Assembly (NCBI GenBank): GCA_041677125.1 | Contig: JBAYQP010000007.1 | Span: 13,998-77,997, forward strand | Reading direction: 5' to 3' | Length of the DNA stretch: 64,000 nt | From: Desulfuromonadales bacterium | Lineage (GTDB): Bacteria > Desulfobacterota > Desulfuromonadia > Desulfuromonadales > JACZKF01 | Shown here: piece by piece, positions 33,549 through 58,231 of the stretch | Position numbering within the stretch: the first letter of the stretch is position 1 | Layout: every line of letters starts with the position of its first letter | Position numbers and translations under genes: made by a program | The notes under the pieces: model-generated | What the model was told of the DNA's origin: nothing | What the model saw: the letters and a program-made list of their open reading frames with translations, nothing else | The model's database searches: none

Positions 33549-33581
33549 AAATAAATGCCCGATTTCGAGGAGAGGCCGAAG

Positions 33582-42224: not shown

Positions 42225-43394
42225 ATGCGCATAATACTTATTGGCAATTTGCCGGAATCATTGGTCAATTTTCGTGGCCCCCTCATTGAGCAAATGGTCC
42301 GGCTCGGTCATGAGGTGGTGGCCTGTTCGCCTCCCGCTGCGCAGGAGGTGCAGGTGAAATTGCAGGCTTTGGGCGCAGCTTACCGTCCGGTGCCGTTGTC
42401 GCGGGCCGGCATGAACCCGTTTCATGATTTGAAAAGTTTGTTCGCCCTTTTCCGCCTCTTTCGCCAGGAACGGCCTGATCTTGTTTTAACCTACACAATC
42501 AAGCCGATTGTCTACGGCTCTTTAGGCGCCTCTCTGGCCGGAATTCCTCGAATTGCTTCCATTATTACCGGCCTCGGCTTTTCCTTTTCCGCGGGGGCGG
42601 GTAGAAAGACGCTGGTCAACCGGCTGGTCTGTCTTCTCTACCGCTATGGGCTGAAAAGAAACCAGGTGGTCTTTTTCCAAAATCCGGACGACAGGCAACT
42701 CTTTCAGACTCTGGGTTTGGTAAAGCTTCCGAGCCGAAGCGTCCTGATCAACGGCTCCGGCGTTGATCTGGAACGATATTCCATCGCTCCAATGCCGAAG
42801 AAAACCCAATTCCTGCTGGTCGCCCGGCTAATCCGGGAGAAGGGAATCCGCGAATACTGTGAGGCGGCGAAGCGGGTTAAAGCCAAATACCCGCAGGTCT
42901 GCTTTCGCCTGGTCGGCATGCTCGATAAGAACCCCGAGGCGATTCGGCGGGAAGAAATCGAAGCGTGGGTCGCCCAGGGCAGTGTCGAGTTTCTCGGCTA
43001 TCTCCCCGATGTGCGCCCAGCTATCGCCGATACGTCCATTTATGTACTTCCCTCTTTTTATCGCGAAGGAACGCCACGCTCCACATTGGAAGCGATGGCG
43101 ATGGGCCGTGCCGTCATTACGACCGATGCGCCTGGTTGCCGGGAGACCGTGGTCGAAGGGCGCAACGGCTTTCTCGTCCCGACCCAGAATACGGATGCTT
43201 TGGTCCGGGCCATGGAACGATTCATCCTGGAACCGGATCTGATTCGCACCATGGGGCGGGAGAGTCGCAGGCTGGCCGAGGACAAATTCGATGTGCGGAA
43301 AGTCAACCGCGTCATTCTGGAGAACCTGGGGCTGCTTGATACGGGAAAAGAATATCCAGCTCCGCAACCCGTCCATTCCACAATGCGAGGCTAA
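42225..43394 (+). CDS. Glycosyltransferase family 4 (GT-B)
   Basis: Start at MRIILIGNLPESL. The EX7E region is REGTPRSTLEAMAMGRAVITTD. Confidence 0.85.
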   Translation: MRIILIGNLPESLVNFRGPLIEQMVRLGHEVVACSPPAAQEVQVKLQALGAAYRPVPLSRAGMNPFHDLKSLFALFRLFRQERPDLVLTYTIKPIVYGSLGASLAGIPRIASIITGLGFSFSAGAGRKTLVNRLVCLLYRYGLKRNQVVFFQNPDDRQLFQTLGLVKLPSRSVLINGSGVDLERYSIAPMPKKTQFLLVARLIREKGIREYCEAAKRVKAKYPQVCFRLVGMLDKNPEAIRREEIEAWVAQGSVEFLGYLPDVRPAIADTSIYVLPSFYREGTPRSTLEAMAMGRAVITTDAPGCRETVVEGRNGFLVPTQNTDALVRAMERFILEPDLIRTMGRESRRLAEDKFDVRKVNRVILENLGLLDTGKEYPAPQPVHSTMRG

Positions 43395-43395
43395 C

Positions 43396-44514
43396 ATGCC
43401 GGAAATGCAATCGGAATTTATAAATACGACAGATCGTCGCTGGCGGGCCGTTCTGCAGCGGGTTCCGCATGATTTCTACCAGTTTCCCGAGTACCTCCGT
43501 TTCACCGGGGAAGCCGAAGGGGGCGAACCGCTGGCCTTCTGGGCCGAAGCGGAAGGCAGCGCCTTCTTGCTCCCTCTGCTGCGCCGGAAAATTCCTGAGG
43601 CACTGAACGCGCCTGCGGATTGGCATGATCTGGCCACCCCTTACGGTTACCCAGCCCCTCTGCTGGCCGGCGACGCGGCCCTTTGGCCCCGTTTTCTTTC
43701 CCGGTTTGCGGCATGGGGTCGGGAGCACTCCGGGGTCTGCGCTTTTGTCCGGCTGCATCCACTGCTGGCGCAGCCGGTCTTGCCGGCCGATCCGCTCTTC
43801 GCGCTGCAGAGCCACGGGCAGACGATCTACATGGACCTTGAACCGTCCGCGGAGGACATTTCCAGGCGCATTCGGGAGAATCACCGCCGGGATATCAAGA
43901 AGCTGCGGAAGTCGGGATTCGAAGTGCGGATGGACGACTGGGACGATCTTGGCGAATTCGTCAATCTTTACCACCAGACCATGGAGCGCTTGTCTGCCGA
44001 TTCCTTCTATTTTTTCTCTGGCGATTACTTCCGAGAGCTTAGAAGGGCCTTGCCGCACAATATGCATCTCTGCTCGATCCGGTCCCCTGAGGGCGAACTG
44101 GCCGCTGCCGCCCTGTTCGTCTGCACCAATGGAATCATTGAATACCACCTGGGCGGCACCGCCGGAAAATTTCTGTCCCAAGCTCCTTCCAAACTGATGT
44201 TCGATTTCGTCTGGCGCTGGGGGAAAGAGGCAGGTTTTCGATTCTTTCATCTTGGCGGAGGGCTCGGCGCCAGCAAAGATAGCCTGTTTCGCTTTAAAGA
44301 GGGCTTCTCCAGGCAAAGGGGCGAATTCGCTACCTTGCGCATCATTTTCGACATGGAAAAATATCGATTTCTCGAAAAAGAATGGCAGCAAGGGAGCGCT
44401 CAGCTCGATCATGCCGATTACTTTCCCGCTTACCGTCGACCCGGTCGAGGGGATGAAGTCGAAACGGGGTTCTCATCTTCCTTGACAACTGCGCAAGAGA
44501 TGATATCTGAATAG
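43396..44514 (+). CDS. FemAB-like / GNAT-fold aminoacyl- or acyl-transferase
   Basis: Start 1 nt after the upstream stop. It shows a duplicated GNAT-like architecture with IEYHLGGT ... FFHLGGG ... LFRFKEGFS, as in the FemAB / Acetyltransf_6 family. Confidence 0.6.
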   Translation: MPEMQSEFINTTDRRWRAVLQRVPHDFYQFPEYLRFTGEAEGGEPLAFWAEAEGSAFLLPLLRRKIPEALNAPADWHDLATPYGYPAPLLAGDAALWPRFLSRFAAWGREHSGVCAFVRLHPLLAQPVLPADPLFALQSHGQTIYMDLEPSAEDISRRIRENHRRDIKKLRKSGFEVRMDDWDDLGEFVNLYHQTMERLSADSFYFFSGDYFRELRRALPHNMHLCSIRSPEGELAAAALFVCTNGIIEYHLGGTAGKFLSQAPSKLMFDFVWRWGKEAGFRFFHLGGGLGASKDSLFRFKEGFSRQRGEFATLRIIFDMEKYRFLEKEWQQGSAQLDHADYFPAYRRPGRGDEVETGFSSSLTTAQEMISE

Positions 44515-44677: not shown

Positions 44678-45439
44678 ATGAAAATTGCCGTTTTGGTCAA
44701 ATCCGTCCCCGACACGGCCGGCACGCCGGAAATCGGCCCGGATGGGCGCAGCGTCGTTACGGAGCATCTGGAAACCGTCCTCAATCCCTATGACGAGATC
44801 GCCGTTGAGGAGGCGGTGCGGATGAAGGAGGCGCTGGGCGCCGAGGTGGTGGCGGTCGGTCTGGGGGACGAGGCAGCGCGCAAGGCGTTGCGCACCGCTT
44901 TTGCCATGGGCGCGGACGCGGCGGTTCTGGCGCGGCGCCCGGAAGAAGAACCGCTGACGGGAAAGGGCGCGGCGCTCTGCCTGGCGCCGGTCCTGCGGGA
45001 GCTGCGGCCGGACCTGATCCTCGCCGGCAAGCAGGCGGTGGACGATGACGGGGCGCAGGTGGCCGAGCGGGTGGCGGAAATGTTGGGTTACCTGCACGCC
45101 TCGGCAGTGACCCGGCTGGCCAAGGATGGGGCGCAACTGGTCGTTGACCGGGAAATCGAAGGGGGCGCCTTGTCCATGGAATTTCCCTTGCCGGCGGTGC
45201 TCACCGTGGAAAAGGGGCTCAACACGCCGCGCTATCCGACCCTGCCGCAAATCCTCAAGGCCAAACGCAGGGAAATCCGGGAGGTGGCAGTCGACGGTGA
45301 AGGCGTGCGGCCTGGCTGGCGGGTGGACGTCCTGTCTTTGCCGGATACGCAACGAAGGCGGCAAATTTTCCAGGGGACGGTGACGGAGCAAGTCGACAAT
45401 CTGCTCCGGGAAGCGCGGCCATTGGGAGGGCTGTCATGA
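44678..45439 (+). CDS. etfB: Electron transfer flavoprotein, beta subunit
   Basis: Contains MKIAVLVKSVPDT, NPYDEIAVEEAVR and LILAGKQAVDDDGAQV. Confidence 0.9.
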   Translation: MKIAVLVKSVPDTAGTPEIGPDGRSVVTEHLETVLNPYDEIAVEEAVRMKEALGAEVVAVGLGDEAARKALRTAFAMGADAAVLARRPEEEPLTGKGAALCLAPVLRELRPDLILAGKQAVDDDGAQVAERVAEMLGYLHASAVTRLAKDGAQLVVDREIEGGALSMEFPLPAVLTVEKGLNTPRYPTLPQILKAKRREIREVAVDGEGVRPGWRVDVLSLPDTQRRRQIFQGTVTEQVDNLLREARPLGGLS

Positions 45440-46413
45440 GCATACTGGTGCTTCTCGAACCGCGCGGTGAACTGACCTCGTCCTGCCTGAGCACCGTCGC
45501 GGCGGCCGGGCGTCTGGCACGGGATACCGGGGTGGAACTGCACGCCGTCTGGCCCTCGCCGGGAATCCGCGCGCAACTCGGCCGGCTGGCGGGTCTGGGC
45601 ATCCAAACCGTGCATACGGTGCGGGAGGATGTTCTCCCCCCATTCAGCCACGAGGCCTGGATTCCGTTTCTGGCGGACTTGACTCGCTCGCTCGGCGCGC
45701 GCCTGGTGGTCGCTCCGGCCTCGGCCTTGGGCAAAGCGTGGAGCGCCGCCCTGGCGGCCCGTCTCGACGCGGAGCTGGCGCAGGATTGCCTCGGCCTCGA
45801 AGCCGCCGAAGGCGGCGTCCCCACGGTCCGGAAACCTCTTTACGCCGGGAAAATTGTCGCCACTCTGCGGCTCACCGGCGCGCCGGCCCTGGCGACGCTG
45901 CGGGCGGGCGCCGCCCAGGTCGTCAGGGCAGGGGAGCAGACGCCGGAAATCGCCTGGCACGTAGTGCCGCCCCCGGAGTTGCGCTCGGTGGTGCGGGAGT
46001 TGGTGCAGAACGCCGGCGGCGCCATTGAGTTGGGAGAGGCGCGGGTTGTCGTCGCCGGCGGTCGTGGCCTCGGCGGTCCCGACAATTGGCCGGTTTTACG
46101 GGAGTTGTGCGCCACCCTGGGCGCGGCCCTCGGGGCGAGCCGGGCCGCCGTCGATGCCGGCTGGATCCAGCACGCGCACCAAGTCGGCCAAACCGGCCGG
46201 GTGGTCAGCCCCGATCTGTACATCGCCTGCGGCATCTCCGGTTCGATTCAACACCTCGCCGGCATGCGCGGGGCAAAAACGGTGGTCGCCATCAACAAGG
46301 ATCCGGCGGCGGAAATCTTCCAGCATTGCGATTACGGCCTGGTCGGCGATCTGTTGCAGATCGTTCCGGCTTTAACCGCTGCCGTAAAGCAGCGGCAGCG
46401 TCGGGTGGCCTGA
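45436..46413 (+). CDS. etfA: Electron transfer flavoprotein, alpha subunit
   Basis: Has a 4-nt overlap with etfB. The C-terminal FAD-binding region is VVAGGRG...GASRAAVDAGW...QVGQTG..V.PDLYIACGISGSIQH.AG. Confidence 0.9.
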   Translation: MSILVLLEPRGELTSSCLSTVAAAGRLARDTGVELHAVWPSPGIRAQLGRLAGLGIQTVHTVREDVLPPFSHEAWIPFLADLTRSLGARLVVAPASALGKAWSAALAARLDAELAQDCLGLEAAEGGVPTVRKPLYAGKIVATLRLTGAPALATLRAGAAQVVRAGEQTPEIAWHVVPPPELRSVVRELVQNAGGAIELGEARVVVAGGRGLGGPDNWPVLRELCATLGAALGASRAAVDAGWIQHAHQVGQTGRVVSPDLYIACGISGSIQHLAGMRGAKTVVAINKDPAAEIFQHCDYGLVGDLLQIVPALTAAVKQRQRRVA

Positions 46414-46422
46414 GGAAATTCG

Positions 46423-48414
46423 ATGGAAATGAGCCGTCCTCTCGGCGTCTACGGTGATTTTTATTGGCTGATGTACCTGCTGAGCGCCGGCGCCCTTGCA
46501 ATTTTCACCTTCGGAGTCCGTGCCCGCGTCCGCCGCTGGCGGGTGGGGGAGGGGCGTCTCGGCGATCGGCTGGACCGGCCATGGCGGCGTCTGCGCGACC
46601 TCGCCGTCGATCTGGCCACCCCGCGCCGGTTCCGCCGGCGCGGCAAGCCCTGGCTGTTTCATTCCCTCATGGTCTGGGGATTCGCGCTGTTTCTGCTGGC
46701 GACTTTTTGTGTGCTGTTGCAGGAGCGTTTCGGCCTGTCGACGTTTGCCGGCGGCTGGTATCTGCTGCTCTCGCTGGCCCTCGATCTTTTCTCGATCCTT
46801 TTTCTGGCGGGAGTGATGTTCGCCGCCTGGCGGCGCTGGGCCGTCCGGCCGGCGGAGCTCGGCGGGGGGGCGGAGGATGGCGCTGTGCTGGCGGTTCTGG
46901 CGCTGTTGCCGACGACCGGCCTGATCCTGGAGGCGGTGCGGATGGCCAAGGATCCGGACCCCTGGGGGGCCTGGTCGCCGGCGGGCGCCTGGCTGGCCGG
47001 CGGTTTTTCCGGCCTCGCTCCGGCGACCCTTGATAGTCTGCACCGGGGACTCTGGTGGGGGCATCTTGCGCTCTCTCTCGGATTTGTCGCCGCCATCCCC
47101 TATGGCCGCTTGTTCCACCTGATTGCCGGACCGCTTTCGTTGTTTTTCGCCGACCGTCACCGGGCGCGGTCCCTGGCGCCCCTGGATTTTACGGACGAGG
47201 CGGCGGAACGCTTCGGCGCCGAGCGCGTCGGCGACCTGCACTGGAAAAGCCTGGTGGAGACCGACGCCTGCCTCGATTGCGGTCGCTGTCAGAGCGATTG
47301 CCCCGCCTGGGAAATCGGCGAGCCGTTATCGCCGCTGCAAATCGGCCAGGGTGTGCGCCGATGTCTGGACCGGGAGACGTCGCTGGGGCGGCGGGCTGCC
47401 GCCTCTCTCCACGAACAAATTTCGGAGGAGGCGCTCTGGGCCTGCTCCACCTGCGGCGCCTGCGAGCGCGCCTGCCCGGTGGCGGTCGAGCATGTGCCCC
47501 GGTTGGTGGCGCTGCGGCGTTATCGGGTGCTGAGCGAATCGCGGTTTCCCGCCGAGCTGCAGACCACTTTCCGCAATCTGGAACGCTCCGGCAATCCCTG
47601 GGGGATGCCGGCGCGGGAGCGCGGCGAAAGGGCGACGGCGGCCGGGTGGCCCCTGGCCGCCGAGACGCCGCCGGCGGAAGTTCTGCTCTGGACCGGGTGT
47701 GCCGGCGTGTTCGATCCCCGCTACCGCCAGGTGACCGCCGCCCTGGCCAAACTCCTCGATTTGGCCGGAATTTCCTATGTCGTGCCGGGAGACGAGGCGG
47801 TCTGCTGCGGCGACGGCGCCCGGCGTCTGGGAAACGAGTACCTGTTCCAGGACCTGGTGGCGAAGAATATGACCTTTTTCGAGAAAATCGGCGTGCGCCA
47901 GGTGGTGACCGCCTGCCCGCATTGCTTCAACTGTTTGCAACACGAATATCCGCAGTTCGGCGGCGATCTCACGGTCACCCACCACAGCGAATTTCTCGCC
48001 GATCTGCTGGCGGCCGGTCGGTTGCCGGCGGCAGACGGTGCGGAAAAATCGACTATCGGCTTTCACGACCCCTGCTATCTCGCCCGCTACAACGGGATAT
48101 CGGCGGCCCCCCGCCGGGTATTGGCCGCCCTCGGGAGCGATCTTTACGAACCGGCGCGGACCGGACCCGACGCCTTCTGCTGCGGCGGCGGCGGGGGCCG
48201 GATGTGGCTGGAAGAAAAGGAGGGCCGGTCGATGGGAAAGCAACGGGTGCGGCAGTTTCTCGATGGCGGCGCCCGGCGGATCGCCACCGCTTGCCCCTTT
48301 TGTCTGACGATGTTGTCCGAGGGCGTACGTCGGAACGCGGAAGCGGAAGACGTCCGGGTCCTCGACCTGGCCGAACTGATGGTGGAAAACATGACCCGAC
48401 CTGATCGGCGTTGA
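46423..48414 (+). CDS. Membrane-anchored (Fe-S) oxidoreductase, HdrD/GlpC-like (putative ETF:quinone oxidoreductase)
   Basis: The N-terminal ~270 aa is polytopic. Two ferredoxin motifs follow (CLDCGRCQSDCP, CSTCGACERACP). There are also two CCG-type Cys-rich domains (CCGDG...CPHC; CCGGGG...CPFC). Confidence 0.85.
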   Translation: MEMSRPLGVYGDFYWLMYLLSAGALAIFTFGVRARVRRWRVGEGRLGDRLDRPWRRLRDLAVDLATPRRFRRRGKPWLFHSLMVWGFALFLLATFCVLLQERFGLSTFAGGWYLLLSLALDLFSILFLAGVMFAAWRRWAVRPAELGGGAEDGAVLAVLALLPTTGLILEAVRMAKDPDPWGAWSPAGAWLAGGFSGLAPATLDSLHRGLWWGHLALSLGFVAAIPYGRLFHLIAGPLSLFFADRHRARSLAPLDFTDEAAERFGAERVGDLHWKSLVETDACLDCGRCQSDCPAWEIGEPLSPLQIGQGVRRCLDRETSLGRRAAASLHEQISEEALWACSTCGACERACPVAVEHVPRLVALRRYRVLSESRFPAELQTTFRNLERSGNPWGMPARERGERATAAGWPLAAETPPAEVLLWTGCAGVFDPRYRQVTAALAKLLDLAGISYVVPGDEAVCCGDGARRLGNEYLFQDLVAKNMTFFEKIGVRQVVTACPHCFNCLQHEYPQFGGDLTVTHHSEFLADLLAAGRLPAADGAEKSTIGFHDPCYLARYNGISAAPRRVLAALGSDLYEPARTGPDAFCCGGGGGRMWLEEKEGRSMGKQRVRQFLDGGARRIATACPFCLTMLSEGVRRNAEAEDVRVLDLAELMVENMTRPDRR

Positions 48415-48516
48415 TCTTCCGCCAGGTTTTACCCCCCTTTCCTAAGGGGGAACTTTGCCTCTGCGGAAAATTGACACGCATCAGCTTACCCGAAGTAAAG
48501 CGGAAGGAGATCCGAC

Positions 48517-48768
48517 ATGAGCGGCAACGAACGGCAGGCGATTCGAGAGTTCATCACCACCCGCATCGCGAAAAAAAGCGAACACCGGCAGATTGGGGAT
48601 CAGGACGACGTCATCGCTTTGGGGGTCATCGATTCCCTCGGCATCATGCACCTGATTGCCTACTTGGAAAAGACCTTCGGCATGCGCATCCGGGACGACG
48701 AGATTTTGCCGGAAAACTTCGCTTCGGTGGAAGCCATTGCTTCTTTTGTTCATCGCACTCGGGCCTGA
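48517..48768 (+). CDS. Stand-alone acyl/peptidyl carrier protein (DltC/PCP-like)
   Basis: 83 aa with the phosphopantetheine attachment motif GVIDSLGIMHLIAYLE. A GGAAGGAG SD lies upstream. Confidence 0.75.
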   Translation: MSGNERQAIREFITTRIAKKSEHRQIGDQDDVIALGVIDSLGIMHLIAYLEKTFGMRIRDDEILPENFASVEAIASFVHRTRA

Positions 48769-48787
48769 CGGCGGGAGAATACAGGCA

Positions 48788-49801
48788 ATGGAAAACTACG
48801 ATTCGTCCGTAAGCACTCGCGACATTCCGATGATTCCCGGCCGCAAGGTGGCCCTGCCGAAGGTCTACGGCGACACTCCGACTTTCCTCGGCGTGCCGAA
48901 GCTCGATCCGGGCGTCCTCGGCCATCCGCCCGATGTGGCCATCATCGGCGTTCCCTGGGAGGGGACGGTCACCTGGGGCTCCTTTACCGGCTGCGAACTG
49001 GCGCCGCGAACCATCCGCCACTGTGCCGCCCGCTACGGGGGTTTTCTGCCGGAGTACGAGATCGATCTTTTCGACCACCTGAGCCTCGCCGATGCCGGGG
49101 ACGTGGCCGTCGATCCGAACAGCCCGCGGGCCACCATGGACCGGATCTTTGCCGCGATGCACGGAATTTACCGCAGCGGCAGCATTCCCATCGTTCTCGG
49201 CGGCGATCATTCCTTTACCCCGGAGGTGATTCGCGCCCTCAACGCCAACCGCCCCGGCAAGGTCGGGGTCATTCATTTCGATTCGCATTTCGACAACGCC
49301 AAGGGGTTCGGCGCCGATCTCATGCCGCGCTGCTCCCCCCTGCATCGCATCGCCCAATTGCCCGGGGTGAGAACGCGCAGCATCGTCCATGTGGGGATTC
49401 GCGGCCCCCGCAACTCCCCGTCGCAGATGGCCTACGCCCGGGAAATGGGGGCGAGCATCTTCACCATCCGCGACATCCGCAAAATGGGGATCGACGCGGT
49501 GATCGAGGAAGCGATCGCCATCGCCCGGCAGGGGACGGAGCATCTTTACGTCACCATCTGCAGCGACTGTATCGACGCCGCCTCCAATCCGGGCGGGCCG
49601 GCCGACTTCAACGGTTTGTTCGCCCATGAGCTGTTCGCTGCTTTGTACCGGCTGGGCGAATCGGGCATCGCCGGCCTCGACTTCGTCGAAGTCTACCCCG
49701 GCCAGGATCCCCATTCCTTCTCCTCGCATCTGGCGTCCTGGGCGATTATTCACGCCCTGGCCGGGATGGCGGCGGGCAAGAAGCGGCAGGGTCTGAGCTG
49801 A
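48788..49801 (+). CDS. Arginase/agmatinase/formiminoglutamase-family ureohydrolase
   Basis: Start at MENYDSS (ATG 48788). All binuclear-Mn motifs are present: LGGDHSFT, HFDSHFD and CSDCIDAASNPG. Confidence 0.8.
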   Translation: MENYDSSVSTRDIPMIPGRKVALPKVYGDTPTFLGVPKLDPGVLGHPPDVAIIGVPWEGTVTWGSFTGCELAPRTIRHCAARYGGFLPEYEIDLFDHLSLADAGDVAVDPNSPRATMDRIFAAMHGIYRSGSIPIVLGGDHSFTPEVIRALNANRPGKVGVIHFDSHFDNAKGFGADLMPRCSPLHRIAQLPGVRTRSIVHVGIRGPRNSPSQMAYAREMGASIFTIRDIRKMGIDAVIEEAIAIARQGTEHLYVTICSDCIDAASNPGGPADFNGLFAHELFAALYRLGESGIAGLDFVEVYPGQDPHSFSSHLASWAIIHALAGMAAGKKRQGLS

Positions 49802-49837
49802 TTTTCCAGAACTGATTTCTCAAGTGGAGGTGCGTCC

Positions 49838-50983
49838 ATGGATTTTTCTTTGTCGCCGGAGCAGAGCGAATTGCGGGAGGCGGTGGTTCGCTTCGCCCAG
49901 AAGGAGCTGACGGATGATGTCGCCGGCCGGGAAAAAAGAGGGGAGTTTTATCGCGACGGCTGGCGCAAATGCGCCGATTTCGGCTTGCTCGGGCTGCCGG
50001 TTCCGGAGGCGTACGGCGGCCTGGGGCTCGACGCCCTCTCCTGCGTGCTGGCCCTGGAGGGGCTCGGCTACGGCTGCCGGGACCACGGTCTGGTGTTCGC
50101 CCTCAACTCCCACCTGTGGACCTGCGTGAAGCCGATACTCGGCTTCGGCAGCGCCGCGCAGAAGGAGAAGTATCTGCCGTCCCTGGTGCGCGGAGAGGCG
50201 ATCGGCGGCCACGCCATGACCGAACCGGACGCCGGATCGGACGCCTTCAGCATGCGCTGCCGGGCGCAGAAGGAAGGCAATCGGTACATTCTCAACGGCA
50301 GCAAAATCTTCATCACCAACGCGCCCATCGCCGACCTGCTGCTGGTGTTCGCGGTGACCGCTCCGGAGCGCGGTTTCGGCAGCATATCCGCCTTCATCGT
50401 CGAAAAAGATTTCCCCGGCTTTTCCGTCGGCCGGCCGCTGGAGCTGATGGGATTGAAAACCTGTCCCATCGCCGAAGTCGTCCTCCAGGACTGCGTGGTT
50501 CCGGAAGAGAACCGCCTCGGCGGCGAGGGGGCGGGGATGGCCATCTTCAACTCGGAAATGGAGTGGGAGCGCGGCTGCCTGTTCGCCGCCCATCTCGGCG
50601 CCATGGAGCGGGAGTTGGAAGCCTGTGCCCGCTACGCCGGCGAACGCCAGCAGTTCGGCAAGCCGATCGGCGGCAACCAGGCGGTGTCGCACAAGATTGC
50701 CGACATGGCGATGCGGGTCGAGCTCTCGCGGCTGATTCTCTACAAGGTCGCCTGGATGAAAGGGCAGGGGGCGCGGGCGCCGAAGGAATCGGCCATCGCC
50801 AAGCTGTTCATCAGCGAAAGCTATGTGCGCAACAGCCTCGACGCCCTGCAGATGCACGGCGCCTACGGCTATTCGGTCGAATACGACCTGGAGCGGCATG
50901 TGCGCGACTCCCTCGGCGGCCGCATCTATTCCGGAACCTCGGAAATCCAGCGCAACATCATTGCCAGTTTTTACGATCTGTAA
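49838..50983 (+). CDS. Acyl-CoA dehydrogenase-fold flavoenzyme
   Basis: 381 aa with GHAMTEPDAGSD, GSKIFITNA and a C-terminal ...IYSGTSEIQRNII. A GGAGG SD lies upstream. Confidence 0.9.
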   Translation: MDFSLSPEQSELREAVVRFAQKELTDDVAGREKRGEFYRDGWRKCADFGLLGLPVPEAYGGLGLDALSCVLALEGLGYGCRDHGLVFALNSHLWTCVKPILGFGSAAQKEKYLPSLVRGEAIGGHAMTEPDAGSDAFSMRCRAQKEGNRYILNGSKIFITNAPIADLLLVFAVTAPERGFGSISAFIVEKDFPGFSVGRPLELMGLKTCPIAEVVLQDCVVPEENRLGGEGAGMAIFNSEMEWERGCLFAAHLGAMERELEACARYAGERQQFGKPIGGNQAVSHKIADMAMRVELSRLILYKVAWMKGQGARAPKESAIAKLFISESYVRNSLDALQMHGAYGYSVEYDLERHVRDSLGGRIYSGTSEIQRNIIASFYDL

Positions 50984-51000
50984 GCCGAAGGGAGTTTCCG

Positions 51001-52593
51001 ATGTCGCCCTACCTCCTGTCCCATCTGCTCGATCTGAGCGCCGAAAAATATCCGCGGCGTCCAGCCGTGATCCAGGGGGAGCGGACCCTGGATTATGCCG
51101 ATCTGGCCGGCCTGGCCGGCCGCCTGGCCGCAGCCCTGGTCGATCTCGGCGTGCGGCCGGGGGACCGGGTCGGTCTGCTGACGGGCAAATCCCTGGAGGG
51201 GGTGGCCGCTATTTACGGCGTCCTTCGGGCCGGCGGGATTTACGTCCCCCTCGATCCGCAGGCGCCGCCGCAGCGGCAGGGGAAGATCCTGGATCGCTGC
51301 GCGGTGGCGGTGATGATCGCCGATGCCCGGCTGGCCGCGCCGATTCTCGCGGATCGGGAAGCGCGGGCCGGGGTGCGGGCGGTTATCCTGATCGGCGAAG
51401 GGGCGGATGTTCAGAGCGGGGTGCGCCTTCTGCCCCTGGCGGCGCTCGAGCACTATCCGCCAGCGGCTCCGGCCCGGATCTCCGATGCCCGGCCGGCCTA
51501 TATCCTTCACACCTCCGGTTCGACGGGCGTGCCCAAAGGGGTGACCATCTCCCATCGGAACGCCCTCGCTTTCGTCGGGATGGCGGCCGACTTTTTCGCC
51601 ATCGGCCGGGAGGACCGCCTGGCCAGCCATGCGCCCTTTCATTTCGACCTGTCGATCTTCGATCTTTTCGTGGCGGCGCAGGCCGGGGCGGCCGTCGTTC
51701 TGGTGCCGGAAAATCTCGGCATTTTTCCGGCGCGCCTGGCCCAGTTCATCGACAAGTCGGGCATTACGGTGTGGAATTCCGTCGCCTCGGTCGTCTCCTT
51801 ACTGGCCGAACGGGGCAATCTCGACGCCTGCCACCTCGACGCCCTGCGGCTGGTCCTCTTCTCGGGGGACATTCTTCCGGTCCGCCAACTGCGCCGGGTG
51901 CGGGAGGCGATGCCGGGGGCCGAACTGTACAATCTCTACGGACAGACGGAAGCCAACTCCTCCACCTTCTTCCGGGTGGGGGAGATCCCGGCCGATCCGT
52001 GCTGGAAAATCCCCATCGGCAAACCGTTTCCCAATTTCGAGGTTTTCGCCCTCGATGAAACCGGCCAACCGATCCGCCGGCCCGGTGAAATCGGGGAACT
52101 GCATGTCTATGGTGCGACGGTGGCTCTCGGCTATTGGCGGGACGACGAAAAAACGGCCGCCGCCTTCGTCGAGCACCCGCTGCATCCCTGGCCGGGGAAG
52201 GTCTACCGCACCGGCGATCTGGTCGCTCTGGACGATGCGGGAAACCTGCTTTTCCTCGGCCGCCGCGATCGCCAGGTGAAGAGCCGCGGATACCGGATTC
52301 AGATCGACGAAATCGAGCATGCGCTCAACAACCATCCGGCGGTGGAGAAGGGGGCTGCGGTGGATATCCCCGACGACCTGCTGGGCTGCCGCATCATTGC
52401 CTTCGTGCGCCTGGCGGCCGGCGGCGACGATACGGATCTGCTCGATTTCTGCAGCCGGTCGTTGCCGCCCTACATGCTTCCCGAACGCATCATCACGCTG
52501 AATGAATTTCCGTGCACCGCCACCGGCAAGATCGATCGCAACGCCCTGCGCGCGATGCGGGGACGGACCGAACCGGCAGAGGCCGTCGGCTGA
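51001..52593 (+). CDS. Stand-alone adenylation enzyme (NRPS A-domain / DltA-like AMP-ligase)
   Basis: Real start at MSPYLLSHL (ATG 51001); the 49969 ORF extension overlaps the ACAD gene. The A-domain cores are HTSGSTGVPKG, FHFDLSIFD, NLYGQTE, YRTGDL, GRRDRQVKSRGYRIQIDEIE, LPPYMLP and TGKIDR. Confidence 0.85.
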   Translation: MSPYLLSHLLDLSAEKYPRRPAVIQGERTLDYADLAGLAGRLAAALVDLGVRPGDRVGLLTGKSLEGVAAIYGVLRAGGIYVPLDPQAPPQRQGKILDRCAVAVMIADARLAAPILADREARAGVRAVILIGEGADVQSGVRLLPLAALEHYPPAAPARISDARPAYILHTSGSTGVPKGVTISHRNALAFVGMAADFFAIGREDRLASHAPFHFDLSIFDLFVAAQAGAAVVLVPENLGIFPARLAQFIDKSGITVWNSVASVVSLLAERGNLDACHLDALRLVLFSGDILPVRQLRRVREAMPGAELYNLYGQTEANSSTFFRVGEIPADPCWKIPIGKPFPNFEVFALDETGQPIRRPGEIGELHVYGATVALGYWRDDEKTAAAFVEHPLHPWPGKVYRTGDLVALDDAGNLLFLGRRDRQVKSRGYRIQIDEIEHALNNHPAVEKGAAVDIPDDLLGCRIIAFVRLAAGGDDTDLLDFCSRSLPPYMLPERIITLNEFPCTATGKIDRNALRAMRGRTEPAEAVG

Positions 52594-52611
52594 CCGAAAA
52601 GGAGAACGACA

Positions 52612-53247
52612 ATGCTGTCGCTGTTGCGCATCAAATACCTGCAATTTCTCGAACATGCGCGGGAGAAGGGATTTTCTTCCGCAGTGGCGTTCACCTTGTA
52701 CAAATACGAAGAAGCGGTGCCGGTGGAGAAGGACCTCGCGACGCTGAAGCCGTTGCCGGAATCGACCGAAACAGATCTGCGGCTCCTCGATCTGGGACCG
52801 GAGAATTTTGCCGGATATTGTCTCGACTATCCCCTGGCCAGCCGCCGGCAACGGGTCGAGCGCTATTTCCGGTGCGGCTACCGGTCTCTCGCCATGGTGC
52901 GCGGCAACCGGGTGCTCGCCGATCTCTGGTACGTGACCCGCGACAGCGCCCGCACCCCCGGTATTCACCCGCATGTCCAATGGTTCGGCATCGACCTCGG
53001 GCCGCACATGGCCTACATGTTCGACATGCATTTTCTGCCCGGACAGCGGGGCGGCGGCGCCGCCACCTTTTTCATGGGCAGCGCCCTGCACCATCTGCGG
53101 GACCGGGGGTTCATCCGGGCCTACGGCTATTTCGCCGCCCACAACACCCCAGCTCTCTGGGTTCACCGGCTGCTGGGCTGGCGGGAACTCCCTCGCTTCG
53201 ATGTCCGGAGATTTCTCCTCTATGAAACCGCCAAGCCCAAAATCTGA
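52612..53247 (+). CDS. GNAT-fold acyltransferase (putative)
   Basis: 211 aa; AAGGAG SD. It has a motif-A-like GQRGGGAATFFMGSAL followed by ...AHNTPALWVHRLLGW. Family assignment is tentative. Confidence 0.5.
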   Translation: MLSLLRIKYLQFLEHAREKGFSSAVAFTLYKYEEAVPVEKDLATLKPLPESTETDLRLLDLGPENFAGYCLDYPLASRRQRVERYFRCGYRSLAMVRGNRVLADLWYVTRDSARTPGIHPHVQWFGIDLGPHMAYMFDMHFLPGQRGGGAATFFMGSALHHLRDRGFIRAYGYFAAHNTPALWVHRLLGWRELPRFDVRRFLLYETAKPKI

Positions 53248-53899
53248 TCCCTTGCCGCCCCGGCCGCAGCCCGGCAAGCGGGCGATGGATGTGTTTTTCT
53301 GTCTCGCCGCCGCGCCGGTCTGGCTGCCGGTTACCGCCCTGGTCGGCCTGCTGGTCAGGTTTTCTTTGGGCTCGCCGGTGCTGTTTCGCCAGGAGCGTCC
53401 GGGAACGCTGGAAAAACCCTTTCTCCTGATCAAGTTCCGCACCATGACCGATGCCCGCAACGCGGCGGGAAGCCTGCTGCCGGATGGCCAGCGCCTGACA
53501 CCACTGGGGCGCTTTTTGCGCCGCAGCAGCCTCGATGAACTGCCGGAGCTGTTCAATGTGCTGCGCGGCGAGCTCAGTCTGGTCGGGCCGCGTCCCCTGC
53601 TGGTGAAATACCTCCCCTACTTTTCGGCGAAAGAGAAGCTGCGGCATACGGTTCGACCGGGATTGACCGGCTGGGCGCAAATAAACGGCCGCAATTATCT
53701 TCCCTGGGACCAGCGGCTGGCCATGGATGTCTGGTATGTCGAAAACTGGTCGCTCTGGCTGGATATGCGCATTTTGTTCGCCACCATCGGCAAAGTCCTG
53801 CGGCGCGAAGGGGCGGCGGCCGACAGCGATCAGGCCGAAACCGATCTCGATTGGGAGCGGCGACGGGAATTGGCCGGGTCCGGAGACAAGGGCCCATGA
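53222..53899 (+). CDS. Small monotopic phosphoglycosyl (sugar) transferase, PglC/WbaP-C-like
   Basis: Contains KRAMDVFF, GSPVLFRQERPG, FKFRTM, DELPELFNVLRGELSLVGPRP and PGLTGWAQINGR. It overlaps the GNAT gene by 26 nt. Confidence 0.85.
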   Translation: MKPPSPKSDPLPPRPQPGKRAMDVFFCLAAAPVWLPVTALVGLLVRFSLGSPVLFRQERPGTLEKPFLLIKFRTMTDARNAAGSLLPDGQRLTPLGRFLRRSSLDELPELFNVLRGELSLVGPRPLLVKYLPYFSAKEKLRHTVRPGLTGWAQINGRNYLPWDQRLAMDVWYVENWSLWLDMRILFATIGKVLRREGAAADSDQAETDLDWERRRELAGSGDKGP

Positions 53900-54873
53900 T
53901 GCCCGGCATCTGGCGGGAAATCCTTTGGCTGATTCTCTGGGCCGGCGCTCTTGGGACCATGACGACTTTTGCTCTGCGCTGGCTGGGCGGCGATCAATAT
54001 CTGGCCGGCCGTCTGGCCGGCTATTTCATGCCCTGGCTGCTGGCGGTCCTGCTCCCCGGGCTGCTTATCGCCATGGTCGCCCAACGCAAATGGCTGGCAC
54101 TCGCCCTCGGTGCGCCCATCGCCCTGATTGTGATCACCTACGCCCCGCTTTTTCTGCCCGCGTCCGAAGAACGGCCACCCGCCGCCTTGAAAGTCATGAG
54201 CTACAACATCTGGTCGCACAACGAGGACATGGCGGCGGCCGCCGCGGTTATCCGCCGGGAGCAGCCGGACATTTTAATGCTTCAGGAAATCAACAGCCGC
54301 CAATTGGGCCGTTTGCAGTTGCTGTTGGACGATCTCCACCCCAGCGGCGCCCTGCACATCATCCATGATGACGATTTGCTGCAAGCCGTGGTAAGTCGTT
54401 TTCCCGTTGTTCCCCTTGAAAGCCTGCGGCATCGCGGTCAGGCGCAACAGGCGCGAATCGCAACGACCTGGGGGCCGGTGACGGTTTTCAACGTCCATCC
54501 CCTGCGGCACGGTGGGTGGCATCATCGGTACAGGCAAATCGTTGCGCTGCTGAAGGAGGAGGTTTTGGACGAACAAGGTCCGACCATTCTGGCCGGAGAT
54601 TTCAATGTCAACGATCAGACGCAACTTTACCGGAAAATCACCCGCTATTTGCGCGACGCCCATTGGCAGGCCGGGTTCGGATTTGGCTTCACCTTTCCGG
54701 CCGATGCGAGCCGCTTTTATCGAAAATATAAAATCCCACCCCTGATCCGCATCGACCATATTTTCTACTCCCCCCATTTTCTCGCCCAAAATGCCCGCAC
54801 CCTCCAGGACTCGGGCGGTTCCGACCATTATCCCGTGGTCGCCGAGCTTATTCCGCCGGCAATTCGCCCCTAG
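53896..54873 (+). CDS. Membrane-anchored endonuclease/exonuclease/phosphatase (EEP) family protein
   Basis: ATGA overlap with the sugar transferase. It has ~3 N-terminal TM segments, then the EEP motifs MSYNIW, LMLQEI, AGDFN and GGSDHYPV. Confidence 0.7.
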   Translation: MMPGIWREILWLILWAGALGTMTTFALRWLGGDQYLAGRLAGYFMPWLLAVLLPGLLIAMVAQRKWLALALGAPIALIVITYAPLFLPASEERPPAALKVMSYNIWSHNEDMAAAAAVIRREQPDILMLQEINSRQLGRLQLLLDDLHPSGALHIIHDDDLLQAVVSRFPVVPLESLRHRGQAQQARIATTWGPVTVFNVHPLRHGGWHHRYRQIVALLKEEVLDEQGPTILAGDFNVNDQTQLYRKITRYLRDAHWQAGFGFGFTFPADASRFYRKYKIPPLIRIDHIFYSPHFLAQNARTLQDSGGSDHYPVVAELIPPAIRP

Positions 54874-55020: not shown

Positions 55021-56265
55021 ATGAACAAAAATAAGCATTGGAACGATGACATGACCATGAGCCGAACCACGCTTTCGCCTGTCGCCGCCGAAAAGAAAAT
55101 CGCCTTTGCCCCATGGCCGTCCTTCTCGGAAGACGAGATTGCCGCCGCCGTTCGGGTTCTGCGATCGGGACGGGTCAATTACTGGACGGGCGACGAAGGA
55201 CGCAAATTCGAGGAAGAGTTTGCCCGCTTTGCCGGCGCCCGCTACGGCGTCGCGGTGGCGAACGGAACCGTCGCCTTGGAACTGGCGCTGCAGGCGCTGG
55301 GAATCGGCCCCGGCGATGAGGTGATCACCACCAGCCGAACCTTCATCGCCTCGGCCAGCGCCGTGGTCATGTGCGGCGCCAGGCCGGTGCTTGCCGATGT
55401 CGATCGCGACAGCCAGAACATCACCGCGGAAACGATCCGCCGCCGCCTGACGGCGCAAACCAGGGCGATTATCGCCGTCCATTTGGCGGGCTGGCCCTGT
55501 GACATGGACCCGATTCTCGATCTGGCGCGGGAACATAACCTGAAGATTATCGAGGATTGCGCCCAGGCGCACGGCGCCACCTATAAAGGGCGGCCGGTGG
55601 GGTCGTTGGGCGATGCGGCGGCTTTTTCTTTCTGCCAGGACAAGATCATGACCACCGGCGGCGAGGGTGGAATGCTGACCACCAACGATGGGGGCCTCTG
55701 GGAACGGGCCTGGTCCTTCAAGGATCACGGCAAAAGCTACCGGGCGGTTTACCACCGTCGGCATCCGAGCGGCTTTCGCTGGCTGCACGAATCCTTCGGC
55801 ACCAACTGGCGGATGACGGAAATGCAGGCGGCCATAGGCCGGGTTTCGCTGCGGCGGCTGCCTGCCTGGCTGACGCAGCGGCGGCGCCATGCCGCCCACC
55901 TGAACGACTATTTCCGTCGATTGCAAGCCCTGCGGGTTGTCGATCCCCCGGCGCAGGTGAGGCACGCCTGGTACAAGTACTATGCTTTTCTGCGGCCGGA
56001 GCGCCTCCGTCCCGGCTGGAGCCGGGATCGGATCGTCGCCGCGGTCAATGCCGAGGGGGTGCCCTGCTTCAGTGGCAGTTGCAGTGAAATTTATCTGGAG
56101 AAAGCCTTTGCCGACCGCTTTTTGCAGCCGGCGGCGCGCCTGCCGGTGGCGCGTGAACTGGGGGAAACCAGCCTGATGTTGCAGGTCCATCCAACGTTGA
56201 GCGGTCGCGAAATGGATGCGACCTGCGACGCGATAGCCAAAGTCCTCCAAATCTCAACCGTGTGA
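55021..56265 (+). CDS. DegT/DnrJ/EryC1/StrS family sugar aminotransferase
   Basis: The PLP-Lys region is FSFCQDKIMTTGGEGGML, and EDCAQAHGA is also present. The start is uncertain (ATG 55021, 55051 or 55057). Confidence 0.9.
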   Translation: MNKNKHWNDDMTMSRTTLSPVAAEKKIAFAPWPSFSEDEIAAAVRVLRSGRVNYWTGDEGRKFEEEFARFAGARYGVAVANGTVALELALQALGIGPGDEVITTSRTFIASASAVVMCGARPVLADVDRDSQNITAETIRRRLTAQTRAIIAVHLAGWPCDMDPILDLAREHNLKIIEDCAQAHGATYKGRPVGSLGDAAAFSFCQDKIMTTGGEGGMLTTNDGGLWERAWSFKDHGKSYRAVYHRRHPSGFRWLHESFGTNWRMTEMQAAIGRVSLRRLPAWLTQRRRHAAHLNDYFRRLQALRVVDPPAQVRHAWYKYYAFLRPERLRPGWSRDRIVAAVNAEGVPCFSGSCSEIYLEKAFADRFLQPAARLPVARELGETSLMLQVHPTLSGREMDATCDAIAKVLQISTV

Positions 56266-56299: not shown

Positions 56300-58231
56300 A
56301 TGGAAAACAATCTTGGCTTTTTCGGCCGCAAACTGTTGATTATCGGTATCCAGATTACGATTGTTGTCGTCTCTTTCTGGTTCTCTTTCCTCCTGCGTTT
56401 CGATCTGCGCATTCCGGAAAAATTCGTTTTCGCCGCCTTATGGCTGATGCCGCTGGTGATCATCGCCAAGTTGCTGGTCTTCTGGGTTTCCGGCCTTTTC
56501 TCCGGCTGGTGGCGCTACGTTTCGATTCCCGATCTGCTGGCTTTGCTGCGGGCCAATATCTTCGGATCTCTCGCGTTTTTGCCGATCGCCCTTTTTTTCT
56601 TCCGCTTCAGCGGGTTTCCCCGTTCCGTGCTGATTATCGATGCCATCCTCTGCTTTTTGCTCATGGGTGGGGTGCGGATCGTCGCCCGGATGCTGCGCGA
56701 GCATATCGAAATGAATCGCAAGGGAAAACGCAACCGGCAGACCGTACTGATTGTCGGCGCCGGAGCGGTCGGGCAGACCTTTGTCCGGGAGATTCGGCAA
56801 AATCCCAATCTGAACATGTCGGTGCACGGTTTCATCGACGGCGATCCGAGCCGGCAGAAGCAGCGCTTTCTCGGCGTTCCGGTGTTGGGAACTCCGGACC
56901 AAATGGAAAAAATTTTCAACCGGGAGCGCATCGACCAGGTGATCATCGCGCAAGCCGCGGTCAGCCCCAGAACGTTGCGCAGGATCGTCGAGATATGCCG
57001 CAAGGCCGGGGTCACTTCGAAGATTTTGCCGGCCGTCGGCTCCTTGCTGAACTGCGATATCTCGGTGCGCCAGATTCGGGATATTCAGGTCCATGATCTT
57101 CTCGGGCGGCCGCCGGTGCAGCTCGAAATCGATGAAATCCGCACGTTTCTGACCGGGAAGCGCATTCTGGTCACGGGCGCCGGGGGCAGCATCGGCAGTG
57201 AAATCTGCCGGCAGGTGGCGGCCTTCGCGCCGCAGAGCCTGATCGTTCTCGACCACGCGGAAACGCCTCTTTTTCACATCGAGGGGGAGCTGCGCGAGCT
57301 GTTTCCCGCTCTGGACCTGTATCCCTGCCTGAACGACATTCGCGACCGCGCGAGCATGCGGGCGATCTTTGCCGCACGGCGTCCCGAAGTGGTTTTCCAT
57401 GCCGCCGCCTACAAGCACGTGCCCATGTCGGAATGCAACCCGATCTCGGCGGTGCGCAATAATATTTTCGGCACACGCAACATCGCCGATTTGGCCGACG
57501 AATTCGGGGTCGGTAAATTCGTCATGATTTCCACCGACAAGGCGGTCAATCCCGCCAATACCATGGGCGCCAGCAAGCGGGCGGCGGAGATTTACGTGCA
57601 GGCTTTGGCGCGACGCAGCGCAACCCAGATGGTGACCGTGCGCTTCGGCAATGTGCTGGGCAGCAACGGCAGTGTCGTGCCGATCTTTCGGCGGCAGATC
57701 GAACGCGGCGGGCCGGTGACCGTCACCCATCCGGATGTGACGCGGTTTTTCATGACCATTCCCGAAGCGGTGCAACTCGTTCTGCAGGCGGGGAGCATGG
57801 GAGTCGGCGGGGAAATTTTCCTGCTCGACATGGGTAAGCCGGTGCGGATCGTGCGTCTTGCCGAAGAAATGATTCGTCTTTCGGGAGTGGGGCTGCAGCG
57901 CGATATTCCCATCGTCTTTACCGGACTGCGGCCCGGCGAAAAGATGCATGAGGAACTCCTGCTCGCTGGCGAGGGGGTGCAGCCGACCCGGCATGCAAAA
58001 ATCAAAGTCGCCCATGCCACTTTTTACGATGAAATCCAATTGAGCCGGTTGCTGGACCAGATGTATCAGGCCGCCCGGAGGATGGAGAGCCAACGCGTCC
58101 TGCGCCTGCTCAACGATATCGTGCCCGAATATCGTCCCGACCGCCCGGTCGGCAACGATCAGCCGTACCTGATCCATCCCCAGAGTCCCTTGATCGCCCT
58201 GCCCACCCTCGACTTCAAGTCGGCGCAGTAA
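56300..58231 (+). CDS. Membrane-bound nucleotide-sugar 4,6-dehydratase (CapD/PglF/WbpM family)
   Basis: It has four N-terminal TM segments, Rossmann motifs VGAGAVG and TGAGGSIGSE, AAYKHVPMSE and STDKAVNPANTMGASKR. Confidence 0.9.
   Translation: MENNLGFFGRKLLIIGIQITIVVVSFWFSFLLRFDLRIPEKFVFAALWLMPLVIIAKLLVFWVSGLFSGWWRYVSIPDLLALLRANIFGSLAFLPIALFFFRFSGFPRSVLIIDAILCFLLMGGVRIVARMLREHIEMNRKGKRNRQTVLIVGAGAVGQTFVREIRQNPNLNMSVHGFIDGDPSRQKQRFLGVPVLGTPDQMEKIFNRERIDQVIIAQAAVSPRTLRRIVEICRKAGVTSKILPAVGSLLNCDISVRQIRDIQVHDLLGRPPVQLEIDEIRTFLTGKRILVTGAGGSIGSEICRQVAAFAPQSLIVLDHAETPLFHIEGELRELFPALDLYPCLNDIRDRASMRAIFAARRPEVVFHAAAYKHVPMSECNPISAVRNNIFGTRNIADLADEFGVGKFVMISTDKAVNPANTMGASKRAAEIYVQALARRSATQMVTVRFGNVLGSNGSVVPIFRRQIERGGPVTVTHPDVTRFFMTIPEAVQLVLQAGSMGVGGEIFLLDMGKPVRIVRLAEEMIRLSGVGLQRDIPIVFTGLRPGEKMHEELLLAGEGVQPTRHAKIKVAHATFYDEIQLSRLLDQMYQAARRMESQRVLRLLNDIVPEYRPDRPVGNDQPYLIHPQSPLIALPTLDFKSAQ

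Follow-up and report, generated by a model that had tools for sequence, protein, structure and literature searches.

What does a set of genes for loading an amino acid onto a carrier protein and oxidising it there do in the middle of a bacterial polysaccharide locus? The question is raised by a stretch of 64,000 nucleotides from a Desulfuromonadales bacterium (contig JBAYQP010000007.1; the whole stretch is hereafter the window), in which five co-directional genes at 48517-53247 encode a free-standing carrier protein, a protein of the arginase fold, a flavoenzyme of the acyl-CoA dehydrogenase (ACAD) fold, a free-standing adenylation enzyme (A-domain) of the nonribosomal peptide synthetase (NRPS) type and a small GNAT-fold protein. 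An earlier note on this DNA had read the five as an aminoacyl tailoring cassette. Our answer, held with moderate confidence and built on sequence comparison, is that the genes belong to a module that makes an oxidised, amino-acid-derived acyl group on the carrier for the N-acylation of the first sugar in the repeat unit. We treat as one module the eight genes from the beta subunit of an electron-transfer flavoprotein (ETF) through the GNAT gene (44678-53247), because the set of ETF, Fe-S oxidoreductase and cassette genes recurs in the loci L004, L006, L007, L008 and L057. The earlier note had passed over the ETF-beta, ETF-alpha and Fe-S oxidoreductase genes as well as a cysteine in the metal site of the arginase-fold protein. 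The cassette is widespread, conserved and uncharacterised, and its overall logic follows known carrier-protein chemistry; its unusual parts are the Cys-substituted ureohydrolase and the dedicated link from ETF to quinone.

Proposed loading and oxidation on a carrier protein

More than 900 homologues of the arginase-fold protein are known; the 120 nearest are 65-88% identical to it, and none of these bears an informative name. Scanning the neighbourhood of its gene in one genome per species (50 loci), we found genes for the carrier, the ACAD and the A-domain adjoining it in 36, usually in the order carrier-(GNAT)-arginase-ACAD-A; the earlier note had proposed a search for this quartet, and because the neighbours recur in so many species-representative genomes, the arrangement is not one of chance. 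The arginase-fold proteins of the 36 loci are at least 54% identical to that of the window, the nearest relative, on a metagenome contig from ENA (L004), reaching 88%, and the hosts include Desulfuromonadales (Geobacter, Geomonas, Citrifermentans, Geomobilimonas and others), Smithella/Syntrophaceae, Nitrospirota, Desulfobacter, Aminicenantes, Fibrobacteraceae and Myxococcota. Every cassette locus whose flanks were examined is flanked by glycosyltransferase, Wzx/Wzy or sugar-modifying genes. The note's remark that it knew of no characterised pathway with this gene set agrees with the literature that we searched, where the combination was not found; the search lacked subscription journals and so is no proof of absence.

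In the window, all five open reading frames (ORFs) lie on the + strand at the coordinates first given for them, with gaps of 19, 36, 17 and 18 nt in order, within the 17-36 nt reported earlier, and the end of the GNAT gene overlaps the following sugar transferase gene (start 53222) by 26 nt, as the note had it; an independent gene call in a Desulfuromonas locus (L057) gives the identical overlap. The folds that had been assigned to the five proteins hold as well, four of them by Pfam and NCBIfam profiles and the GNAT by an AlphaFold model searched with Foldseek. The carrier (48517-48768, +; 83 amino acids) matches PF00550 with 31 bits and contains GVIDSLGIMHLI; the serine of its GVIDSLG (the DSL motif) would be the phosphopantetheine site. 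Homologues of the carrier adjoin the arginase or the GNAT gene in nearly all cassette loci.

The A-domain (51001-52593, +; 530 amino acids) matches PF00501 with 275 bits, together with PF13193 (AMP-binding_C), clears the curated cut-off of TIGR01733, 'amino acid adenylation domain', with 357.8 bits where 317.4 are required, and contains in its translation all the NRPS core motifs that had been quoted for it. Its best single-domain solved relative is PltF (6o6e), to which the core aligns without a gap and with 159 bits, against about 70 for the next single-domain structure. The specificity code, read from the HMMER alignment to PltF and from motif positions, is DLFNLSLSSK at the ten Stachelhaus positions where PltF has DLLYLALVCK; half of the positions (5/10) are identical, and the changes from PltF to the window are L239F, Y278N, A301S, V330S and C331S. 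Asp235 is kept and the remaining pocket consists of L, F, N, L, S, L, S and S, which would leave it more polar than that of PltF and roomier at the bottom; the polar residues specific to this type of enzyme are N278, S301, Q325 and S330. The same code, D-L-F-N-[H/L/I]-S-[I/L/V]-S-S-K, is found in 40 of the 41 A-domains from cassettes of the window's kind (type I hereafter), the exception having Ala for Ser301, and in none of the 41 is there an acidic residue at any of the ten positions. Among classical codes the nearest is presumably the cysteine type, DLYNLSLIWK, and those known for arginine, ornithine and lysine carry an acidic residue.

This pocket bears on what is loaded. A plain proline-to-pyrrole cassette was not accepted, the window differing from PltF at five pocket positions; a proline-type code is found among the cassettes only in a Nitrospirota locus (L028). 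The presence of an arginase-fold partner suggests a different candidate, L-arginine or another guanidino acid, from which that partner would remove urea while the acid is tethered or just after its transfer to the sugar, the guanidino group being a masked amine and the oxidation coming before or after urea removal. Arginine is the sole abundant guanidino amino acid, but two features of the pocket count against it as the substrate: there is no acidic residue, and position 239 holds a bulky Phe, a trait of codes for small side chains. We judge loading of arginine unlikely on these grounds and return below to what the hydrolase itself says about it. On the reading that we prefer, the A-domain would adenylate a neutral, polar, small-to-medium or cyclic alpha-amino acid and load it onto the holo-carrier.

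The next step would be an oxidation. The ACAD (49838-50983, +; 381 amino acids), an FAD-dependent protein of the AnaB/PigA/RedW type, has all three domains of its family and finds its two best NCBIfam models in PigA (458.6 bits, cut-off 500) and RedW (430.9 bits, cut-off 650), followed by AcrC (314.9 bits) and FadE (257 bits). The ranking among solved structures is similar: the prolyl-ACP dehydrogenase AnaB (4irn) comes first with 423.5 bits, then the L-prolyl-PCP dehydrogenase 5zw0 with 343.8, then butyryl-CoA dehydrogenase with 328.8. The motif MEWERG is kept and its Glu aligns with Glu244 of AnaB, which we take to be the proposed base, and the position of the MCAD-type Glu is occupied by Ser (IYSGTSE), as in AnaB. 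By these comparisons the enzyme appears closest to the dehydrogenases of prolyl carrier proteins and not to those of beta-oxidation. The note had modelled the cassette on PltF/PltL/PltE and held that a dehydrogenase nested among housekeeping beta-oxidation enzymes would speak against it; bit scores, rather than a tree, place the ACAD with the prolyl-carrier enzymes and the A-domain nearest PltF, and the analogy holds. The ACAD would strip the alpha and beta hydrogens from the aminoacyl thioester, once or twice, as AnaB and PltE do with prolyl thioesters, giving an enamine or imine, of which a pyrroline-carboxyl group is one example; a second round would lead to a pyrrole.

Such an oxidation needs an outlet for electrons, and three genes just upstream probably provide it. 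The ETF beta subunit (44678-45439, +; PF01012, 122.8 bits) is followed by the alpha subunit (45436-46413, +; PF00766, 119.3 bits, with PF01012), which overlaps the ETF-beta stop by 4 nt, and by a Fe-S oxidoreductase of 663 amino acids (46423-48414, +) with two CCG domains (PF02754, 121.3 bits over two stretches), Fer4_8/Fer4_10 matches and 4Fe-4S dicluster motifs; its hydrophobic N-terminal part weakly resembles NarI (PF02665, 21.6 bits, below the cut-off of 22.9). ETF genes beside a membrane protein of the 4Fe-4S/CCG kind are the gene signature of the ETF/Fe-S electron chain of anaerobes. In Syntrophomonas wolfei, a membrane Fe-S oxidoreductase of this type works with ETF, and in syntrophic butyrate oxidisers it accepts electrons from ETF (PMC3582634, PMC5101538). 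The order ETF-ETF-FeS-carrier-arginase-ACAD-A is common to the window, L004, L006, L007 and L057, and L008 has the same genes with one for an endonuclease/exonuclease/phosphatase (EEP)-family protein inserted between those for ETF-alpha and the oxidoreductase. From this adjacency in six loci we infer that the three proteins take the electrons of the ACAD, which would pass through ETF to the membrane Fe-S oxidoreductase, acting as an ETF:quinone oxidoreductase, and on to the quinone pool; the route fits a host that, judged by its relatives and by this type of ETF/Fe-S genes, would be an anaerobe.

As syntrophs usually oxidise acyl-CoA by way of ETF and a membrane Fe-S oxidoreductase (PMC3582634, PMC5101538), one could suppose that these genes and the ACAD are a housekeeping beta-oxidation unit set by chance beside a ligase and carrier pair. 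We give this next to no credence: the ACAD gene stands between the arginase and A-domain genes in at least 30 genomes with no ETF nearby, and its product scores far higher on models of prolyl-carrier-protein dehydrogenases than on those of acyl-CoA dehydrogenases.

Some loci show other genes at these places. In the Geomonas/Citrifermentans loci inspected (L016, L017 and L027), which are without ETF genes, a Cys-rich ORF of 218 amino acids (CxxCxGACC; about 11012-11670) lies between the arginase and ACAD genes; its product may take the part of ETF as redox partner. The ETF genes of the Desulfuromonas locus (L057) are immediately preceded, at 1-1998, by those for an Orn/DAP/Arg decarboxylase and a PylC-like ATP-grasp ligase.

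The arginase-fold enzyme and the sister cassette

The place of the arginase-fold protein (48788-49801, +; 337 amino acids; PF00491, 214.8 bits against a cut-off of 22) is less easily settled. It falls below every NCBIfam equivalog cut-off of its family (HutG 116.6/229, agmatinase 106.2/174, arginase 59.5/228), and among solved structures its best relative is 7esr/7oi1 (143.5 bits), deposited as 'probable agmatinase 2', which we take to be the guanidine hydrolase GdmH, Sll1077 of Synechocystis; 9fek and metformin hydrolase (8ryi) are also among the best. The GGDHS and HxDxHxD motifs are kept, as are five of the six canonical ligands of the binuclear metal site (H141, D165, H167, D169 and D260), but the first Asp of the SxDxD motif, the bridging ligand and presumably the counterpart of Asp232 in rat arginase, aligns with Cys258 in three separate alignments. 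All 121 family members compared have C258-S-D260, and E301, the Glu equivalent to Glu277 of arginase, is likewise invariant. Identity as an agmatinase, arginase or formimidoylglutamase was rejected, the curated models being far below cut-off and one metal ligand changed. In our scheme the enzyme would hydrolyse one C-N bond of amidino or imino type, either before loading, in a free precursor, or later, once the intermediate has been oxidised.

The remaining 14 loci of the scan, 12 of them from Bacillota, carry the gene alone, without the cassette, and in several of those inspected it adjoins genes for ABC transporters of the LivJ/LivH/LivM type. The stand-alone enzymes keep the Cys in all but one case and share with those of the cassettes nearly all the residues specific to the family, including four conserved arginines. 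Because these relatives share their residues with the cassette enzymes and adjoin transporters, the whole branch may well act on a similar small, amino-acid-like molecule. The earlier note had assumed a tethered substrate; the shared residues favour a small free one at least as much, and we lean slightly towards the latter, a free small molecule being quite possible, if a little short of probable, a carrier-bound or sugar-bound species a possibility that we rate lower, and some other substrate the least likely of the three. The stand-alone Cys ureohydrolases, mostly in Bacillota metagenome-assembled genomes (L038-L052, gene at about 10001), form an uncharacterised catabolic family, and single members have as neighbours a glutaminase (L050), an AtzE-like amidase (L052), or a nickel-pincer isomerase and a 2-hydroxyacid dehydrogenase (L041).

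These observations bear again on a guanidino acid as the loaded substrate. In favour of it are the constancy in the cassette of an arginase-family enzyme that keeps E301 and five of six metal ligands, and a precedent in marginolactone biosynthesis, where an arginase-family amidinohydrolase unmasks a guanidino 'protecting group' (PMC4737276); the loci L076 and L078, which have no arginase gene, could simply retain the guanidino form. Against this, the Nitrospirota locus pairs the arginase gene with a proline-type code, and the cassette enzymes share their residues with stand-alone relatives that sit beside transporters of amino-acid type. The structure nearest to the enzyme, moreover, is presumably that of GdmH, which acts on a very small free substrate. 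Taken with the pocket, this makes the reading distinctly unlikely to us, and the note's suggestion of de-guanidinylation while tethered finds no support, either in a pocket, DLFNLSLSSK, without an acidic residue or in the variant loci L028 and L076/L078.

A second alternative keeps the hydrolase and moves its work upstream: it would supply the amino acid to be loaded by acting on a free small molecule, for example turning arginine into ornithine. Ornithyl-carrier, once alpha,beta-dehydrogenated, would undergo spontaneous ring closure to the pyrroline-2-carboxyl thioester, the same species as would come from proline. A convergence of this kind would account for an ACAD of prolyl type, for the A-domain of L028 with its proline-type code and for the loss of the arginase gene in L076 and L078. 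The residues shared by cassette and stand-alone enzymes, the four arginines among them, and the LivJ-like binding proteins and permeases beside the latter point the same way. Known ornithine and lysine codes have an acidic residue, however, and the pocket has none; arginine biosynthesis already makes ornithine (an ArgJ gene lies in the window), leaving no obvious need for a dedicated supply; and L028 retains its arginase gene. We think this alternative unlikely, if a little less so than the loading of arginine itself.

A sister cassette, which we call type II, offers a different view of the hydrolytic step. It has the order carrier - ACAD (50% identity) - A (36%) - Amidohydro_2 - GNAT (56%), as at 5958-10633 of a locus in Syntrophotalea acetylenivorans (L055; CP015519), and it occurs also in L058-L061, L063, L068, L069, L080 and L081 and on many metagenome contigs. 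In L055 and its close relatives L059-L061 it stands in the same context of EEP, Bac_transf, DegT and CapD genes as type I, with a different ETF pair beside it. The arginase-fold enzyme is thus exchanged for an unrelated putative metal hydrolase, whose protein has no match among PDB sequences or in NCBIfam, and the exchange comes together with a changed A-domain pocket, DMFKLGVGSK, with Lys at position 278. With such a cassette in the same sugar context, we regard the scheme of loading, dehydrogenation, hydrolysis and transfer as modular; with hydrolase and pocket exchanged together, the hydrolytic step seems to depend on which amino acid is loaded. In type II loci the EEP gene is followed by one for a protein of 409 amino acids, ATP-grasp-like but different from the ligase of L057.

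Probable transfer from the carrier to an amino sugar

The GNAT gene (52612-53247, +; 211 amino acids) gives only a marginal Pfam match (PF00583, 21.0 bits against a cut-off of 20.7), and we are confident of the fold from the predicted model: its pLDDT is 93.1 and its pTM 0.89, and Foldseek returns many GNATs at probability 1.0, including such N-acyltransferases of amino sugars as MshD, a glucosamine N-acetyltransferase and WecD, with TM-scores of 0.5-0.6 that indicate likeness at the level of the fold only. A GNAT homologue lies beside the carrier gene in most cassette loci; L001/L031 (Geobacter sp. AOG1) and L014 have a hexapeptide-repeat acyltransferase there instead. On an Anaeromyxobacter contig (L056), the carrier (67% identity) and GNAT (57% identity) are paired without A-domain, ACAD or other genes of the cassette. 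A DegT aminotransferase gene lies just upstream in many cassette loci. Because a GNAT or hexapeptide transferase stays by the carrier and DegT is near, the evidence supports a GNAT that works with the carrier and an acceptor that is an amino sugar, the link to a 4-amino sugar already drawn in the earlier note; the GNAT would then be an acyl-carrier-protein:amino-sugar N-acyltransferase, an assignment drawn from the adjacency of its gene to that of the carrier.

The same note had left the choice of transferase between the GNAT and a FemAB-like enzyme, and the two have parted company. The FemAB/Acetyltransf_6-like gene (43291-44514, +; PF13480 45.2 bits, PF02388 39.4 bits; 42 bits on TIGR03019, pepcterm_femAB, with a cut-off of 260) has counterparts upstream in L004, L055, L059 and L061 and is absent from most cassette loci. 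As an inconstant neighbour, unlike the GNAT or hexapeptide transferase, it was set aside.

The setting of the cassette is a Wzx/Wzy-type polysaccharide locus. Upstream of the block lie genes for GT2, GT4, Wzy, GT4, Wzx, a pyruvyl transferase, GT4 and the FemAB-like protein. Downstream, and all on the + strand, come a small PglC-type polyprenyl-phosphate sugar-phosphate transferase for priming (53222-53899; PF02397, 201.5 bits), a membrane-anchored EEP-family protein (53851-54873; PF03372, 83.9 bits), a DegT/PglE-type sugar aminotransferase for the 4-amino group (55021-56265; PF01041, 348.1 bits) and a membrane UDP-GlcNAc 4,6-dehydratase of the CapD/PglF type (56300-58231; PF02719, 388.4 bits, with PF13727), followed by a BBP2-type outer-membrane protein, Wza and Wzc. 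CapD and DegT would provide UDP-4-amino-4,6-dideoxy-HexNAc, to whose 4-amino group the GNAT would move the acyl group from the carrier, and the PglC-like enzyme would then load the acylated sugar onto the lipid carrier and so start the repeat unit. The EEP gene overlaps the end of the priming transferase gene and is a conserved neighbour of cassettes of both types (L004, L005, L007, L008, L055-L061).

Could the product instead be a small diffusible metabolite or a lipid head group of type II NRPS origin, the presence of the cassette in a polysaccharide locus being an accident? The trios PltF/L/E and AnaC/D/B normally feed polyketide or peptide assembly lines, and the best NCBIfam matches of the carrier protein are carriers of natural-product and ornithine-lipid pathways, all of them far below cut-off. 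No condensation, ketosynthase or thioesterase gene is found in the window or in the loci whose flanks were examined, however; in phyla unrelated to one another the cassette is surrounded by genes for glycosyltransferases, Wzx/Wzy and sugar modification; and its sole transferase partner has the fold of an amine N-acyltransferase. We consider such a product very improbable.

Our preferred reading, carrier-borne oxidation followed by N-acylation of the sugar, has its own difficulties, and these weigh against it. The code of the A-domain agrees with that of PltF at just five positions in ten and presumably comes closest to the cysteine type; the ACAD stays below the curated cut-offs of PigA and RedW and so does not count as an equivalog of either; and the evidence for carrier-to-sugar transfer by the GNAT is one of gene position. 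The arginase step, moreover, does not fit the scheme consistently: the code of L028, DIFYVALVIK, is of the proline type, yet the locus retains the arginase gene, whereas L076 and L078 have the usual code, ACAD, carrier and GNAT without it, and no single scheme fits type II, L028, L076/L078 and the stand-alone arginase loci together. A more specific version, in which the cassette installs an undescribed N-acyl group (pyrroline- or pyrrole-2-carboxyl or a related one) on a bacillosamine-type sugar of the exopolysaccharide and the Cys-bridged arginase-fold enzyme hydrolyses an imine or amidine on the carrier-bound intermediate, is offered as a tentative proposal that we find possible and somewhat doubtful. 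The two loci without an arginase gene hold further genes, recognised by eye from translations: in L078 (2620-6609), HMG-CoA-synthase-like, thiolase-like and AAC(3)-like genes between carrier and ACAD, and in L076 (10741-13205), a HemK-like methyltransferase gene.

If the preferred reading is right, the carrier logic of natural products, loading an acid and oxidising it on the carrier, widely decorates the surface polysaccharides of anaerobes of sediments, soils and digesters whose glycans are almost unstudied. The scheme predicts new sugar N-acyl groups and, with an ETF chain of its own, would couple polysaccharide tailoring to the quinone pool of the membrane. On the more specific version, types I (arginase fold) and II (Amidohydro_2) would be two solutions for decorating glycans with oxidised amino acids in anaerobes. 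The sister cassette, with another hydrolase and another A-domain pocket, is a ready comparison for working out the chemistry. The module also offers a setting in which to seek the function of a large conserved branch of the arginase family with a Cys in its metal site, and a Cys-bridged reaction on this fold would, if true, be new to the ureohydrolase family.

The rest of the window adds some context. Because its left part (1596-20891) carries housekeeping genes, namely a MgsA/RarA-type ATPase, an SMC_N/RecN-type ATPase, SecA, ArgJ, a class I aminoacyl-tRNA synthetase with a valyl-type C-terminal arm and a response regulator, we place the polysaccharide locus on the chromosome. Between a radical-SAM gene and a PKD protein lie four successive ORFs on the minus strand (24230-29507; 300, 302, 474 and 482 amino acids) with no meaningful Pfam match. 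The PKD protein (1142 amino acids, with PKD/Big_9 repeats and a weak pectate-lyase-like match) and a pectate-lyase-like protein of 435 amino acids after it occupy 29949-34862, just upstream of the glycosyltransferase genes, and may be secreted proteins that modify polysaccharides. A scan of the locus for promoters and terminators gave nothing above chance.

Known systems compared

The arginase-fold enzyme is most readily set beside the GdmH branch (Sll1077 and metformin hydrolase), with which it shares the PF00491 fold, five metal ligands and the guanidinium-binding Glu. Unlike that branch, it has an invariant Cys for the bridging Asp and sits in a carrier-protein cassette; no HypA/HypB-type nickel chaperone genes were seen among the window genes examined.

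The pairing of an adenylate-forming enzyme with a small carrier for a cell-envelope polymer has parallels in the exosortase-A/PEP-CTERM ligase-carrier sets and in DltA/DltC. The model of the exosortase-A-associated ligase (TIGR03098) is the second-best NCBIfam match of the A-domain, at 314.3 bits where the cut-off is 592.35, and the scores on the DltA model TIGR01734 (246.8 against 559.85) and on the DltC model (16.7 against 68) place the window proteins outside that system. Neither kind of set has a dehydrogenase or an arginase-fold partner, unlike the window.

Closer in purpose is the tetronate set of Vibrio cholerae O1, which includes a carrier protein and an AMP-ligase-like enzyme. As in the window, genes within the O-antigen locus (VC0248-VC0252, tetronate/perosamine) serve to place an unusual acyl group on a 4-amino-4,6-dideoxy sugar (PMC3441752). 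The V. cholerae set differs in having no ACAD and no arginase fold and in that its acyl group is a hydroxy acid, and its pathway has mostly been assigned by homology. An arginase-family enzyme within a carrier-protein pathway is also known from the marginolactones desertomycin and primycin, where the guanidino group masks an amine (PMC4737276); that pathway differs in loading 4-guanidinobutyryl-CoA onto a modular polyketide synthase, and the acid loaded in the window need not carry a guanidino group.

The nearest likeness is to the prolyl trios PltF/PltL/PltE, RedM/RedO/RedW, PigI/PigG/PigA and AnaC/AnaD/AnaB, which, like the window, combine a free-standing A-domain, a carrier and an ACAD. By sequence the module would work as the PltF/L/E and AnaC/D/B trios do without being a member of their group by the curated measures, the ACAD cut-offs and the proline code, and its own code departs from that of PltF towards smaller polar residues. 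In contrast to the trios, whose products go to an assembly line, that of the window would be bound for an amino sugar by way of the GNAT, and to the shared logic of loading and oxidation the window adds an arginase-fold enzyme and a dedicated chain of ETF and quinone reductase.

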